A DNA stretch of 62,638 nt, from positions 1 through 62,638 of the IMG/VR virus record IMGVR_UViG_3300046792_000108. One strand, 5' to 3'. This document shows, piece by piece, positions 24,154-32,846 of this stretch. Position 1 is the stretch's first letter, and the number at the start of each line of letters is the position of its first letter. The translations under genes were made by a program, and so were the position numbers. The stretch comes from a virus (lineage: Duplodnaviria > Caudoviricetes). The notes beneath the pieces were generated by a model. The model did no database searches. It was not told where the DNA came from and saw only the letters and a program-made list of their open reading frames with translations.

Positions 24154-24395
24154 AAGTCCTTTCCCCTGGAAAGTTGAATACCACGTGACGCCAGCTTCAA
24201 CTGGATTATCACAGGAATAATATCTATCGTGATTCCAGGATCCAATGGGTGGATATCCTCGAGGAAGATCACGTCTGACAGGAATCTCAATGCGGCATCT
24301 AGACTCCCCAGGGACTCCTTTCTATCTTTAACTGACATGGCTTCGGTTAATGCTTTGATGGCCATGCTCATTGCACCTCTCGACTTTACGTTCAT
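24150..24395 (-). CDS. Hypothetical protein
   Basis: Coupled overlaps with both neighbours. Confidence 0.6.
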   Translation of the reverse strand: MNVKSRGAMSMAIKALTEAMSVKDRKESLGSLDAALRFLSDVIFLEDIHPLDPGITIDIIPVIIQLKLASRGIQLSRGKDL

Positions 24396-25219
24396 TCCAG
24401 CTCCTTCCTTTCTCCTCCTTGACCTTCGAATGCGTTCGCTTTCAGGTTCATACGATCAGCCGCAGATTTTCCTGCCTGGTACCCAAGCGTATTGAAGTCT
24501 CCTCGACCACCTAGGATCTTTGCTGATTTTCCACCACGATTCTTCAAATATTCTCGAACAGCTAAAGCTTCTCTGTTTATTCTTGCCAGAGCAGTTCCTG
24601 AATTGCTCTGCTCCATCTTCTTCTTTTCTTCCTCAAACCTTTGAGCAAGACGAGTCGTGAAACCTGAAAGCCAAGAACTCTTGAACCCGTGAGTCTGTGA
24701 CAGAAGATCTGCTACCAAGTACTTGTCGTCTCCACCCTGTTTCCTGCATTGGCGGCGGAACTTCATATACTCCTGGTGGCACATTTTCTCAGCAACTCTG
24801 TGCATCATAATGAACAAATATTCAACGATCGCAGCGTCGGATTTCCTACCTACAATGCACAACTGGCTGCTAGCTTTGTACACCATAAAACTGCACGAGT
24901 GTGCATCACAGATAACACGCATCAGATTCTCTGCCCACTCTGATCTACGGGACGTAACTTCTACGTCGGGATATTTCGTGTAGAACCTCTGTCTTCCCTT
25001 GTAAAAATATTCACTGTCTCCGACCGTGGATTCCTCCACTGGTTCGTCTTTCAGATGAGACGAGTATTGAATGTCGGTCATCTCTAGTTTGTGTCTTAGA
25101 AGCATGTTCTGAAGCATCGTGGCAAATGCTTGCGCTTCAGCCTCACTTCCTATCTCCTGGGCCGATTCCATGTGGGCTTTGATCTTGCCCAGTTTTTCCA
25201 GAATCTTTTCGTCAGGCAT
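24392..25219 (-). CDS. DUF2786-type protein
   Basis: KILEKLGKI..EAEAQAFA..ML.RHKL; FKSSWLSGF; GYQAGKSA. Confidence 0.8.
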   Translation of the reverse strand: MPDEKILEKLGKIKAHMESAQEIGSEAEAQAFATMLQNMLLRHKLEMTDIQYSSHLKDEPVEESTVGDSEYFYKGRQRFYTKYPDVEVTSRRSEWAENLMRVICDAHSCSFMVYKASSQLCIVGRKSDAAIVEYLFIMMHRVAEKMCHQEYMKFRRQCRKQGGDDKYLVADLLSQTHGFKSSWLSGFTTRLAQRFEEEKKKMEQSNSGTALARINREALAVREYLKNRGGKSAKILGGRGDFNTLGYQAGKSAADRMNLKANAFEGQGGERKELE

Positions 25220-26472: not shown

Positions 26473-26663
26473 ATATCTAACCCCTGTTCTCTCTTTGTTG
26501 CACAAGAGTTGCAATACCCATACCCAGGACGAAGCCGAACTGTTCTTCCACATCCCTGGCATTTTGTTGGACGAGATTCCTTTTGAACCTGGCGATAAAA
26601 CTCAACGTCTTCCTCAGATTCAATCTCGTATTGACCAAAGTTGTCGTCATAATAAGCTGGCAT
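26469..26663 (-). CDS. Small Zn-finger protein
   Basis: MPAYYDDNFG..CQGC..CNSC; TAAGGAG RBS. Confidence 0.7.
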   Translation of the reverse strand: MPAYYDDNFGQYEIESEEDVEFYRQVQKESRPTKCQGCGRTVRLRPGYGYCNSCATKREQGLDI

Positions 26664-26809
26664 TACTTTCTCCTTATCCAACCTGGATAACTTTCCCACA
26701 TCGGGCACATTCGAAGCCGTGAGTTTGAACTGCAGGCCTGTAATCATAAGGTACTGGGACCTGATCTTTTTCAGGACAGGTGCACCAGAAATCGTCTACG
26801 ATTTTCTTC

Positions 26810-27055
26810 TTACTCATCTTCCCACTCGAATTCTCGATCGTCAAGGATCTGTTGAAGAATCATGATCTGACCTAATGAATCCTCCCATGTCACGATGCTT
26901 TGAATATCGTTGTATGGGTCATCGGTTAGCAGATCAATAGCCCTTATCAAATCTTCTTCCGTAGGATTAACTATCTGTTGAAATTCGCAACTCAACTTAC
27001 CGAGTTGAATGTAAATCTCATCTACCTTAGCTTGTTGTTCAGGTGTTAATGGCAT
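26810..27055 (-). CDS. Small acidic protein (paralog of 26242..26472)
   Basis: MPLTPEQQAKVDEI; GAGGAGG RBS. Confidence 0.7.
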   Translation of the reverse strand: MPLTPEQQAKVDEIYIQLGKLSCEFQQIVNPTEEDLIRAIDLLTDDPYNDIQSIVTWEDSLGQIMILQQILDDREFEWEDE

Positions 27056-27063
27056 ATTCCTCC

Positions 27064-27417
27064 TCAATCCCACCACAGTTTCAGGTAATTGATTCTTCCG
27101 ACTTTCTCAATCGAGGCCTCATCGCAGTTCTGGGATAACTCCACAAGATCTTCTTTCGATAGAACTCGAATCGGAATCCAAACATGATCGAAAAGAATTT
27201 CCTTATCTTCAACCATATCCGGTCTTTCCGGATCAATGGATGGACCGAACAAACAGTGGTCTAGAGGAAATGGCGAGGAAAATGTCTCCTCAACCTCATC
27301 TGCGTTGTGGATTGCCATAATCCTATCGGGGAATTGAGATTTCCAAACTGCCAGTGGCTTTGCTTCCATCTCCCGAAAACCGTCGGTAGATGCCGCATTA
27401 ACTATTGGTCGTTTCAT
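27064..27417 (-). CDS. Hypothetical protein
   Basis: RBS AAGGAG; ends LWWD. Confidence 0.7.
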   Translation of the reverse strand: MKRPIVNAASTDGFREMEAKPLAVWKSQFPDRIMAIHNADEVEETFSSPFPLDHCLFGPSIDPERPDMVEDKEILFDHVWIPIRVLSKEDLVELSQNCDEASIEKVGRINYLKLWWD

Positions 27418-27492
27418 AAAACTCCTTTTTGTCAGAACTTGGGACTGACATGTTGCATTAACAGGACGAGCTGTGCTCGCCTGCCCCTCTGC

Positions 27493-27687
27493 GACTATGT
27501 CTCATGCGAGATTAACTCGCATCCTGTCACCCGGACAGGTTTTCGGTTATTGGCGTCTTTTCGTATTCTTCAACGATTTCTCTTACACCATCGCAGAATT
27601 CATCAACCGTACAGCCTCCGCGGTTGTAGTGAACTATCAAACTATCTATCTTTTCTTTCATGGTTTAACCTCCCATGAGACATAGTC
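27493..27687. repeat. Inverted-repeat cassette 1 (23-bp arms)
   Basis: 27493-27515 vs 27665-27687; outer 14 bp perfect. Confidence 0.9.
27527..27661 (-). CDS. 44-aa peptide inside cassette 1
   Basis: GGGAGG RBS; MKEKIDSLIVHYNRGGCTVDEFCDGVREIVEEYEKTPITENLSG. Confidence 0.7.
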   Translation of the reverse strand: MKEKIDSLIVHYNRGGCTVDEFCDGVREIVEEYEKTPITENLSG

Positions 27688-27689
27688 CC

Positions 27690-27893
27690 TTCTGTGCATC
27701 ATGCGAGATTAACTCGCACCTTCAACTATAACTTTAAGATCAGTTAGAGTTACAGTACCATCCTTACGAGTAATACGAGTCTTATTCGTAAGAAATTCAA
27801 CCTGTTGACATTCTGTATAGATTGCAACCGGAGTATCACACCCCACATTCCATAAAGAAATCTTCATAGTTTAACCTCCCATGATGCACAGAA
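27690..27893. repeat. Inverted-repeat cassette 2 (23-bp arms)
   Basis: 27690-27712 vs 27871-27893; outer 14 bp perfect. Confidence 0.9.
27709..27867 (-). CDS. 52-aa peptide inside cassette 2
   Basis: GGGAGG RBS; MKISLWNVGCDTPVAIYTECQQVEFLTNKTRITRKDGTVTLTDLKVIVEGAS. Confidence 0.7.
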   Translation of the reverse strand: MKISLWNVGCDTPVAIYTECQQVEFLTNKTRITRKDGTVTLTDLKVIVEGAS

Positions 27894-27894
27894 C

Positions 27895-28422
27895 TTATGC
27901 TACTACCTAGACCGTTGTACGATTCGTTTCTTCTACTCACATACGTGGCTTTACTGGTGGTTCGTATGTGCCTCAGGAACTATGTCGTCGAATCTAGGAT
28001 TCACGCCGTGTGGTGCCGATGGCATCCTGCCGCACGGACTTTTCAAGATTTGGGAACCTTGACCTGCCTCGAGAAATGAGATCCGTAACTGAGTCGTACC
28101 CAGTGCAGAGCAATCGTGCGTCAAGTTAATTAACCTGACCATCCGGTCTGTGTCACACTCACAGCATCATAGATGTAGAACTTGCGATACTTCCGCTTCT
28201 CAATTTCTTTGCGCGGTCCAGGACCATTGGCCTGTCGCATAGTTTGAGAATTGGAAGGAAAGATATTTCCTCCGACGTGCCTGCGCAGCGTCAGATACAA
28301 ATTCCTCTCGCCGTAGCTTGTCGCATCTCCCTCGGCCTCGAACCGTTTCAAGGTCCCGTTTAACCGTTTTGACTCCGAGGTGCGATGGTTATCAAAGATT
28401 CAGGATTACGAAATCCTGTTAT
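27895..28422 (-). ncRNA. Candidate long structured RNA or leader
   Basis: Directly downstream of a strong promoter, no convincing ORF, many nested hairpins. Confidence 0.55.
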
Positions 28423-28428
28423 GTCAAT

Positions 28429-28458
28429 ATCATAAAAGACCTGCATAGTGTTTGTCAA
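28429..28458 (-). promoter_or_regulatory. sigma70-type promoter
   Basis: TTGACA-18nt-TATGAT. Confidence 0.8.
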
Positions 28459-28475
28459 TGGAGAACTAAAACTTT

Positions 28476-28784
28476 TTACTCAGTAGGTTTGCAATTTGGA
28501 TCAAACTCTCCTTCTGCTATGTCTACTACATCCACGAACACATACTCCCCGAAGGGTTGAGCTTCTTCTCCAACCACCCTAAAACCTTTCCTCACCTCTC
28601 CCGTAGCTCCACAGAAGAAGCATGAGGTAAGTTGACAACTCCTTATATCATCCAGATCAACAATTAAAATCTTACATTCACTCTCCCTAGAAACCTCGTC
28701 CGACTCCTCACAACAGCCAAAACCTACGGGGAGATCTTTAAGCTTTTTCGTTTTTACCCAAGCTAATCTCATAAGATATACCAC
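28476..28784 (-). CDS. Hypothetical Cys-rich protein
   Basis: CC..CFFC; start probably 28772. Confidence 0.6.
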   Translation of the reverse strand: MVYLMRLAWVKTKKLKDLPVGFGCCEESDEVSRESECKILIVDLDDIRSCQLTSCFFCGATGEVRKGFRVVGEEAQPFGEYVFVDVVDIAEGEFDPNCKPTE

Positions 28785-29197
28785 ACTGCCTTTCTACCAT
28801 GCTCCCTGGCGTAGATCGCTGTCCAGCAACCTCCGGATTTCACATGTGTTGTGGAGTTACAATGGTAGCACTGATCAAATCTTCTACCTTTGAAATCCGG
28901 CGGATACTGAGCAAGTACGATGTTGTGAATCTCATCTGACTTCAGTGCAATGCGAATGTTGCGAGGCTTGAATCCCGTGTTCCAGTCAAGGTGCCGTGGT
29001 GGAAATGGGTAGTACGGCTTGTCAAGTTCTAGGCATACAATCTTTGCCCAAATATCAATTCCTCCCAGATGACACTCACCAGATGCGACTCCAGTGCATC
29101 GAGGGTCTGAGATCAACCGAATGAGCAAAGTCTTTGCATCACTCTCGGTCTCAGGTGTGAACTTAGCTTCTTCAGCTCCGACGATACCGTAGATCAC
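28769..29197 (-). CDS. SLOG-superfamily-like protein
   Basis: YGIVG..VASGECHLGGIDIWA..RNIRIA..SGG..TA..A. Confidence 0.65.
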   Translation of the reverse strand: MIYGIVGAEEAKFTPETESDAKTLLIRLISDPRCTGVASGECHLGGIDIWAKIVCLELDKPYYPFPPRHLDWNTGFKPRNIRIALKSDEIHNIVLAQYPPDFKGRRFDQCYHCNSTTHVKSGGCWTAIYAREHGRKAVWYIL

Positions 29198-29360
29198 TTG
29201 ATCCTCACCACGAGTGCAGAGTTTAATCCTTTATCCTCCAAAAACATTTCAATCAAGGCGGTGTAACACTCTTCAGGTTTAGAATTTTTCCGAAGTTCAT
29301 CACTAACCAGTTTGTCCAATTCTTCTTTCTTGATCCTGATTGTAAACTCGAGAGTTTCCA

Positions 29361-29768
29361 TCATCCGAATATCTTCCTTTTCCTTGCGTACATGTCTCTG
29401 AGGCGGAACAGCTCATCTGGTGTGATTCTCTCCAGATCTAACTCATCCAACCATTCCTGGACCTTATCCTTAAACTTGCATTCGTATCGTGCGAACTGTT
29501 GGAGGATAAATTCTGCTTCCTGATTACGCTTAGGTTGGAATTTATGGCCTGTGCTGCGTCTCACGCTGCTATCTACACCGTACTGGTGGATAAACTTCTG
29601 TGGCTCGTCAGGTTTAAGATGAGACGGTTTACGTGGTTCAGGACCTTTCAGGATGGTCCGTATGCGCTGGCGAGATGCCGGGTTACGAGGCAATCCAATC
29701 GCTAGCGCAATCTTACCTGTCGTGAGGCCCTGCTTGTGCAACTCGAAGATGTGTTCAAGAGGGAGCAT
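29361..29768 (-). CDS. HTH-containing protein
   Basis: GLTTGKIALAIGL..SRQRIR. Confidence 0.65.
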   Translation of the reverse strand: MLPLEHIFELHKQGLTTGKIALAIGLPRNPASRQRIRTILKGPEPRKPSHLKPDEPQKFIHQYGVDSSVRRSTGHKFQPKRNQEAEFILQQFARYECKFKDKVQEWLDELDLERITPDELFRLRDMYARKRKIFG

Positions 29769-32422: not shown

Positions 32423-32453
32423 TGAATATGCATATTATAAGATTAAAAGAAAG

Positions 32454-32489
32454 TCATCATACACTTCATCATACACTTCATTAAACATC
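32454..32489. repeat. 12-bp tandem repeat in AT-rich intergenic region
   Basis: TCATCATACACT x2 plus degenerate TCATTAAACATC. Confidence 0.7.
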
Positions 32490-32846
32490 TCCATTAACTA
32501 CTCTGTAGATTATAATCACGCAAGTTTGTTGGTCTTCTCTACTCCAATAAGTGGATAAGTGATTAGTTTTTACCTAGTCAATACAATTCCTTTGTTGATG
32601 AGTGATAGCTGGAGTTGGTTTTGGAGATGTCCAATGGAGCGTCTGATGAAGCGTATAATGACTTTGCTTTTATCTTATTAACCAGTATTTATGCATGTTG
32701 TAGGATAGCATGTACTCAATCGGTAAATACTCATATATCGCGCGTGCGCGAGAAGATGTTGTTTATACGTAGAGAGGGATTAAGGAAGGTGTTTATACAT
32801 GTAGAGGTCGAAAGATCATGTTGGTTTTAGGTAAGAATAAGAACCA

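Follow-up and report, generated by a model that had tools for sequence, protein, structure and literature searches.

How can small, unrelated genes be carried, and perhaps controlled, between one and the same pair of inverted repeats? This question is raised by a two-unit locus (27493-27893, minus strand) in the IMG/VR virus record IMGVR_UViG_3300046792_000108, a soil phage record of 62,638 bp that is estimated to be 83% complete and is referred to below, in its whole length, as the window. Each unit consists of a short open reading frame (ORF) preceded by an arm that contains its Shine-Dalgarno (SD) sequence and followed by a second arm complementary to the first. The units are interpreted here, with moderate confidence, as portable promoter-less cassettes in which the two ends of the mRNA form a 5′-3′ clamp in competition with a local 3′ hairpin, the stem of the clamp being a probable RNase III substrate.

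Architecture and predicted folding of the two units

A preliminary description of the locus had reported two units of about 200 bp, 2 nt apart on the minus strand, with arms that pair over 23 nt except for one G-G and one G-U, an inner 14 nt that is identical between the units, an outer 9 nt that differs between them yet stays complementary, and an alternative hairpin within the 3′ arm. All of these features were recovered. The units are 195 and 204 nt in length and lie, with all of their parts, on the minus strand, separated by a 2-nt spacer (27688..27689). The 5′ arm of unit 1 (27871..27893) comprises an outer 9 nt (27885-27893) and a conserved, SD-bearing core of 14 nt (27871-27884), and its 3′ arm (27690..27712) comprises a 14-nt core (27699-27712) and an outer 9 nt (27690-27698). 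The equivalent arms of unit 2 are located at 27665..27687 (outer 9 nt 27679-27687, SD-bearing core 27665-27678) and 27493..27515 (core 27502-27515, outer 9 nt 27493-27501). Each pair of arms, with 158 nt between them in unit 1 and 149 nt in unit 2, is 91% complementary over 23 nt, with 21 Watson-Crick pairs, one G-U pair and one G-G mismatch. The inner 14 nt are the same in both units, whereas the outer 9 nt differ at five of nine positions with complementarity complete.

The sequence of the 5′ core corresponds to a strong SD, well spaced from the ATG, which follows the 5′ arm after 3 nt in both units. The 3′ core complements the SD core save for the G-G mismatch, and as a result of this mismatch it can pair perfectly with an anti-anti-SD segment that precedes it. 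The local hairpin formed in this way (27701..27719 in unit 1; 27504..27522 in unit 2, from its sequence and predicted fold) has 6–7 bp and consists of the anti-anti-SD, a 5-nt loop and the anti-SD, a module that is constant in 4/4 cassettes (units 1 and 2 of the window and one each in the metagenome contigs L075 and L076, described below, which are the basis of all cassette counts). The ORF of unit 1 (27709..27867, 52 aa) ends at a UAA within the hairpin loop, and that of unit 2 (27527..27661, 44 aa, acidic) at a UGA that is 15 nt upstream of the loop UAA and in frame with it.

Two copies of the 20-nt 3′ module are present, compared to 0.01 expected, and none of 100 shuffles produced two copies. 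The 14-mer alone, with up to three mismatches, is not enriched (7 matches, 6.9 expected). The whole window contains only 12 inverted repeats of 15 nt or longer within a distance of 600 nt.

The 476-nt stretch folds at −169.2 kcal/mol (z = −9.0), a value equalled by none of 100 shuffles, and both long-range stems are present in its minimum-energy and centroid structures. The arm duplexes within the units are each predicted at about −34 kcal/mol (−33.9 kcal/mol for unit 1 and −33.8 kcal/mol for unit 2), compared to −19.9 kcal/mol for the 3′ arm of unit 1 with the 5′ arm of the neighbouring unit 2, and −8.4 kcal/mol for the local 3′ hairpin. The predicted cost of keeping the 5′ arm unpaired is 28.9 kcal/mol in unit 1 and 20.1 kcal/mol in unit 2. 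Sequestration of the SD by the arms, as proposed in the preliminary description, is thus predicted to be strong, and the outer part of the stem covaries among cassettes (see below).

The cargo peptides contain no hydrophobic segment (top 19-residue hydropathy 0.44 and 0.20; grand average of hydropathy 0.0 and −0.53), in agreement with the earlier view that they are soluble, and neither of them belongs to a Pfam or PHROG family at curated level. The unit 2 peptide has one homologue, P0003 (50 aa, 76% identity, with a 19-residue identical block), and its AlphaFold2 model is a helical hairpin with a predicted local distance difference test score (pLDDT) of 86; it is probably a real protein. No homologue of the unit 1 peptide was found beyond its own cluster, and its AlphaFold2 model (pLDDT 45) is unreliable.

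Further cassettes and variation among close strains

A search for homologous cassettes identified two more, in the metagenome contigs L075 and L076, both of which contain an exact match to the 20-mer; there were no exact matches in viral_contigs (0) or genome_contigs (0). Each contig carries one cassette, with an ORF of 57 or 60 aa and a 3′ module identical to that of the window. When the window, L075 and L076 were compared pairwise by blastn with a word size of 7, only the arm modules were matched at E≤0.1. The remaining matches were 15–25 nt in length with E-values of 0.85–0.95, which is chance level, and tblastx at 1e-3 gave no matches among the three sequences. The same arms are therefore found around unrelated ORFs in two unrelated contigs, and close strains swap or lack units (see below), which bears out the modular units with swappable cargo that had been envisaged.

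Both arms with a gap of 145–175 nt were not found in viral_contigs, and a pattern of the 5′ arm plus ATG gave 11 matches in that set, which are chance matches to SD sequences with no 3′ arm at a distance of up to 600 nt (0/11). The 1.5-kb region had no match among GenBank phages, and the junction alone gave only an 18-nt match at E = 5. Searches for relatives of the 117-aa gene downstream of the units and of the L075 ATPase found none, and an Rfam search of L075 and L076 at E≤5 returned only two chance matches below the cut-off (CRISPR-DR2 and mir-242_2).

The SD core lies 3–4 nt before the ATG in 4/4 cassettes, and the 3′ module is identical over 22–24 nt. Beyond the core, the stem continues for 9 bp in each unit of the window, for 3 bp, a bulge and 4 bp in L075, and for 4 bp in L076. 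The total is 23, 23 and about 21 bp in three of the four cassettes, and 18 bp with a mismatch in that of L076. In an alignment of the four cassettes on the 23-pair stem, 93.9% of 82 cells pair, compared with 34–45% when the partners are slid. Fifteen of the stem pairs are constant, one varies on one side (A-U/G-U), and five change on both sides; the resulting covariation score was equalled in one of 500 shuffles. The clamp is present in the minimum-energy fold of three of the four cassettes.

The G-G mismatch is found in all four cassettes, where it retains GGGAG in the 5′ arm and leaves the 3′ arm a perfect partner for the local hairpin. In L075 and L076, position 10 of the 14-nt 5′ core is A instead of G, and this change preserves pairing solely as a G-U of the sense strand. 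Since these G-U pairs exist only in a sense-strand reading, they favour RNA, or single-stranded DNA of the sense strand, over recognition as duplex DNA. The four ORFs are also all in frame with the UAA of the hairpin loop, two stopping there and two at a UGA exactly 15 nt upstream, although this carries weak weight.

Parts of the two-unit stretch are contained in 24 soil or rhizosphere DNA runs. Contigs from four of these runs were aligned at a likeness of at least 80%, and only stretches with contig cover were counted. One contig each from runs X2 and X4, which belong to two studies, joins 27494 to 27884 with four other letters between them, and the flanks of this junction differ by 0–5 letters per aligned piece; it is an allele without either unit. 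CATG was considered as a target duplication and dropped, as the empty allele does not contain it. In one X2 contig, 220 other letters replace the 141 nt of the unit 2 cargo (joint 27522→27664). Both unit 2 arms are kept, unit 1 is unaltered there, and the ends of the swapped stretch coincide exactly with the inner borders of the conserved modules. An X2 contig lacks one base of the C run at 27687-27689. Three short contigs from run X3 match the arm and junction modules only (27666-27722, 27871-28017 and 27455-27507) and turn into unlike sequence at the position of the cargo; as read from a loose end, one alternative cargo begins 4 nt past the arm. The empty and swapped alleles indicate that the slot is polymorphic for both presence and cargo, with the arms as its boundaries.

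Transcriptional setting and adjoining ribozyme

Units 1 and 2 are the first ORFs downstream of a near-consensus promoter and leader. The putative sigma-70-like promoter (28429..28458, minus strand) consists of TTGACA, an 18-nt spacer and TATGAT, with 11 of 12 consensus matches; 26500-29500 contains only one other promoter-like site. It is separated from unit 1 by an ORF-poor leader of about 530–535 nt (27894..28428, minus strand), whose ORFs have only weak TTG or ATG starts without an SD, and whose predicted fold is modestly better than that of shuffles (z = −2.1). In other strains, the leader contains indels or replacements near 28190-28195 and 28195-28305. The distance from the promoter-like site to the cassette is about 535 nt in the window (11/12 match), 238 nt in L075 (10/12 match) and about 90 nt in L076 (11/12 match), and cassette ORFs come first after such a site in each of the three loci.

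On the downstream side, unit 2 is adjoined by a predicted type-P5 twister ribozyme (27432..27493, minus strand), which starts at the final base of the unit 2 3′ arm. The match to RF02684 covers the complete model (1-58 of 58), with a narrow margin over the curated cut-off (38.5 vs 37.6 bits), and RF02684 is the only Rfam family above cut-off in the window. Cleavage is predicted at the U-A step of UAAUGC, at about 27460/27459, the position expected from other twister ribozymes. The next gene (27064..27417, minus strand; 117 aa, no known family) has its own SD 8 nt past the twister. Both the twister and the leader are kept in strains without the cassettes. In an X3 contig, the twister diverges after UAAUGC (27455) and, as read from the loose end, has an extra hairpin before its last stem; on this reading, the form of the ribozyme appears to vary between strains, yet a ribozyme is retained.

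The 3′ end of the leader (27889..27986, minus strand) appears to be a degenerate copy of the twister module. It aligns with 27425-27510, with the same first and last 8-mers and 46 invariant columns, and is not recognised as a ribozyme by Rfam. It may represent a decayed second twister, in which case the cassette slot would lie between two ribozyme modules. The outer partners of both 9-nt extensions belong to older flanking sequence and, since the last ~100 nt of the leader align with the twister module and share its 8-mers, the inner partners of the extensions match local flanks. This match is unexplained, with selection, templated palindrome extension and an origin in situ as candidates. The preliminary description did not include the twister adjoining unit 2, the promoter with its leader, or the fact that the G-G mismatch is invariant.

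No match to hammerhead, pistol, hatchet or twister-sister was obtained at E≤5 in the window, and an Rfam search of 26800-28900 at E≤10 detected no other family, the leader and arms being unmatched. The arms as halves of a known ribozyme were dropped as a candidate, since support from Rfam is absent. Antisense RNA was dropped as well, as no plus-strand promoter-like site was found in 26500-29500. On the plus strand, the terminal part of the unit 2 ORF contains a terminator-like hairpin and T-run (27523-27539); given that a plus-strand promoter was not found, this probably mirrors a sense-strand hairpin around the UGA stop.

Homologues of a neighbouring gene of 142 aa are present at 61 loci, none of which (0/61) contains the arms or the strict twister pattern within 4 kb. 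A twister search of 50 viral records from these loci (11 were left out) gave a match at E≤0.1 in four and above the cut-off in one, G040. This is a distant phage of 44,934 bp with terminal repeats, 64% GC in the part fetched, and one neighbouring gene in common with the window. It contains seven tandem type-P5 twisters on the minus strand (L074 2709-5587, equivalent to G040:C1:15208-18086), six scoring 50.7–60.8 bits and one 26.4 bits, at a spacing of 350–560 nt. Every copy follows a stop codon and is itself followed by a conserved SD leader, and the intervals hold one or two genes each. As judged by its sequence, the array is a natural ribozyme-punctuated operon. The supplementary locus lists of ribozyme surveys could already hold arrays of this kind.

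Another of these records, G011, contains a twister-like element below the cut-off (L065 409-480, 27.6 bits), which has an extra stem and lies after a stop codon and before the next SD. The ORF that follows in G011 (L065 1-300) enters a long, highly regular short-period repeat reaching the contig end. The elements of G040 and G011 suggest that early genes in this loose group are repeatedly separated by RNA cleavage elements, and it is in such a setting that the clamps are found. The roles of bacterial and phage ribozymes are described as largely elusive in a review, which mentions processing of polycistronic transcripts as a proposal (PMC6765202).

The two-unit locus is located within a minus-strand run of small ORFs without assigned family, upstream of the replication genes. 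Among the 10 ORFs around the units, no PHROG or curated Pfam family was found, except for one DUF protein at 24392..25219. The window also encodes a P22-type portal and coat and a terminase; a family-A DNA polymerase, an SNF2 helicase, a primase-helicase and a ligase; and a PD-(D/E)XK nuclease and an AAA_24 protein. An inverted repeat of 67 nt with 79% complementarity (32437-32503 / 32612-32678, 108 nt between the arms) is located upstream of the early small ORFs; the sequence around it is AT-rich and contains promoter-like hexamers.

Role of the paired arms and comparison with known systems

From the anatomy of the units, their predicted energetics, the covariation, the presence of the arms in unrelated genomes, and the polymorphism of presence and cargo, all of which were observed, we infer every RNA-level step of the following model. 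Small-gene cassettes without a promoter of their own would be carried in the first transcription unit behind an early-type promoter, each bounded by a portable pair of RNA elements, the 5′ element providing the SD and the 3′ element an anti-anti-SD followed by the anti-SD. The open state would have a folded 3′ hairpin and a free SD, and would be kinetically favoured during transcription of the unit. When the 3′ element has been transcribed, the ends of the mini-mRNA would zip into a stem of 18–23 bp and lock the SD; this closed state is predicted to be overwhelmingly favoured thermodynamically. Because the clamp would form once the 3′ element is made, translation would be limited to a co-transcriptional window, or the clamp would have to be opened or cut. 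A stem of 21–23 bp is a plausible substrate of RNase III, and cleavage of the long stem by this enzyme would part the units from each other, with the adjacent twister parting them from the downstream mRNA. Through the two cleavages together, separate mini-mRNAs would arise from the early transcript. The outer extension, which is free in sequence, would lengthen the stem and, in tandem arrangements, act as an address by which each 5′ arm prefers its own 3′ arm. The invariant cores may double as break points for the exchange of cargo by recombination.

Several points weigh against this model. Only four cassettes are available and their SD-containing core never varies, so that the covariation supports the outer stem only; the 100% identity of the core could stem from recent transfer instead of constraint. 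Removal of the outer 9 bp in silico converts unit 2 to the open form and leaves unit 1 clamped, which implies that opening of the clamp by an RNase III cut would not be general. The minimum-energy fold of the L076 cassette, whose extension is only 4 bp, is built from local hairpins, and the SD pairs there with sequence upstream of it. By a loose-end reading, another X3 cargo has its ATG about 30 nt past the arm, behind an SD-like motif of its own, and the arm there would consequently not be the working SD.

It is possible, though not probable, that the arms are purely a processing stalk, an RNase III site by which each mini-mRNA is excised, with the overlap of the SD either incidental or leader-defining. 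The arms would then be the protein-dependent counterpart of the neighbouring twister. The stalks flanking rRNA and the hairpin sites of T7 early mRNA are precedents for such processing by RNase III. The stems of 23, 23 and about 21 bp in 3/4 cassettes fit this explanation, as their sequence-free extensions go beyond what masking of the SD needs. A plain double-stranded RNA site, however, needs neither the invariant G-G mismatch nor the invariant competing 3′ hairpin; moreover, the SD-to-ATG spacing is near-optimal in 4/4 cassettes, and the stem of L076 has only 18 bp with a mismatch. The stalk gains from its surroundings, with a twister directly adjoining unit 2 and a ribozyme before each gene in G040, from the X3 variant cargo that seems to bring its own SD, and from the proposal, noted in that review, that ribozymes process polycistronic transcripts (PMC6765202).

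Action at the DNA level, with the arms as terminal repeats or single-stranded DNA hairpins for a transposase or recombinase encoded elsewhere and the RNA fold as a by-product, is considered unlikely. Such an element would account for identical arms in three otherwise unrelated contigs and for presence or absence in close strains; the four unexplained letters at the empty junction recall the 6 bp described for the mobile element MPME (PMC3029335), and the match of the inner extension partners to older local flanks could point to templated insertion. Target-site duplications were nevertheless found in none of the four cassettes (0/4), apart from the palindromic 4-mer TGCA, and the variable outermost 9 nt around a conserved inner core are the reverse of typical terminal repeats. 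On these two grounds, a miniature inverted-repeat transposable element or transposon with terminal inverted repeats was rejected. The G-U pairs make sense on the sense strand only, the core coincides with the SD and with the SD-ATG spacing, an attC-type core fits only two of the four cassettes (by eye), and no transposase or integrase family was detected in the 30 window ORFs scanned.

Type I toxin-like mRNAs, in which a toxic small peptide is silenced by 5′-3′ fold-back and released by 3′ trimming, are a highly improbable explanation. A clamp and a competing hairpin on an ORF of 44–60 codons do resemble the folding logic of hok and aapA, as outlined in PMC6733600, but the peptides lack hydrophobic character, the cargo consists of unrelated, interchangeable ORFs, no plus-strand antisense promoter-like site was found in 26500-29500, and either the next unit or the P1 hairpin of the twister shields the 3′ end. 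A recent, functionless local duplication of a pair of untranslated regions (UTRs), suggested by the adjacent units and their identical cores, is disfavoured and scarcely credible, as the same arms occur in two unrelated contigs, the outer stem covaries across four cassettes, and the arms are kept while the cargo changes.

More broadly, and only tentatively, the cassettes might constitute an unrecognised, integrase-free phage gene-cassette system with the SD/anti-SD pair as a universal adaptor. Any small ORF between the arms would then become a self-contained, insulated and self-limiting expression unit, and the arms would serve as exchange sites, possibly hairpins with templated flank extension, for trading first-expressed accessory (e.g. 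anti-defence) genes. If so, the adaptor and the G040 array would together indicate a wider natural grammar, in which the early genes of phages are insulated from one another at the RNA level. Provided that the clamp works as proposed, it would be a small natural device, about 40 nt in all, that moves between unrelated phages, uncouples the expression of any small gene from the neighbouring genes and renders it self-limiting over time. It would also offer a testable case of the shuffling and control of the accessory genes that phages express earliest, show that 5′-3′ UTR pairing, known in bacteria from single genes, can take the form of a portable module, and give the twister a definite place in RNA processing, next to a counterpart that depends on protein. 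First-expressed, interchangeable cargo could conceivably have host-takeover or anti-defence roles, and the polymorphic slot is a natural place for finding new small proteins of these kinds.

The literature searched, supplements aside, contained no account of exchangeable phage ORFs enclosed by a portable, inverted SD/anti-SD pair. Integron attC cassettes are promoter-less tandem ORFs, each with an imperfect inverted repeat that has unpaired bases and GTTRRRY-type cores, and are expressed from an upstream promoter. The units resemble them in their tandem promoter-less ORFs, in the imperfect inverted repeat of each, and in presumed expression from an upstream promoter. The integron-like cassettes with single-stranded DNA hairpins suggested in the preliminary description were not supported in that form, however, since the arms are on either side of the ORF rather than together 3′ of it as in attC. 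A GTTRRRY-type core, as judged by eye, fits two of the four cassettes, and no integron integrase was detected among the 30 window ORFs scanned against Pfam, which are part of the ORFs of a record that is 83% complete.

The MPME of mycobacteriophages are elements of about 440 bp with a constant ORF, copies that are 100% identical, and 6 extra bp at insertions (PMC3029335). The units are likewise tiny, with inverted repeats and one small ORF, are present or absent in near-identical phages, and have a few unexplained bases at the junction; here, in contrast, the arms alone are constant and the ORF varies. In the synthetic pRAP system, ribozymes split a polycistron into monocistrons (PMC9872166). 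A twister between cistrons, as found here, and one per gene in G040 are similar to such ribozyme-separated operons, from which the arms differ in that they are themselves not a ribozyme and match no Rfam family.

The mRNA of hok is locked by fold-back, passes through metastable hairpins, and is activated by 3′ trimming. As in hok/Sok and aapA/IsoA (PMC6733600), a small ORF is combined here with mRNA ends that would pair against translation and with alternative local hairpins that would steer folding. The features that define membership of that group were not found, as there is no antisense partner, the peptides are not of membrane type, and the cargo is variable.

A closer parallel for the pairing itself is icaR of Staphylococcus aureus, in which pairing of the 3′ UTR with the SD blocks initiation and creates an RNase III substrate (PMC3868564). 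The units share with icaR an anti-SD downstream of the ORF that pairs with the SD of the same mRNA, as predicted in silico in 3/4 minimum-energy folds. Whereas icaR is one gene on the chromosome and has a long 3′ UTR, the units have a short, portable pair of elements around interchangeable phage ORFs, as well as a built-in competing hairpin, a tandem arrangement and a neighbouring ribozyme.

With respect to genome organisation, the units can be compared to PeSL of T4-type phages, which are mobile regulatory cassettes with short conserved motifs around ORFan genes in variable early regions (PMC2839356). In both systems, the motifs bound indels or replacements between close relatives (here 27494→27884 in two runs and 27522→27664 in one run). 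PeSL consist of a promoter and a terminator stem-loop in direct orientation, whereas no promoter-like site is present in or between the arms of the units and their 3′ hairpin lacks a U tract. The motifs described here are instead an inverted SD/anti-SD pair, which would act on translation or processing.

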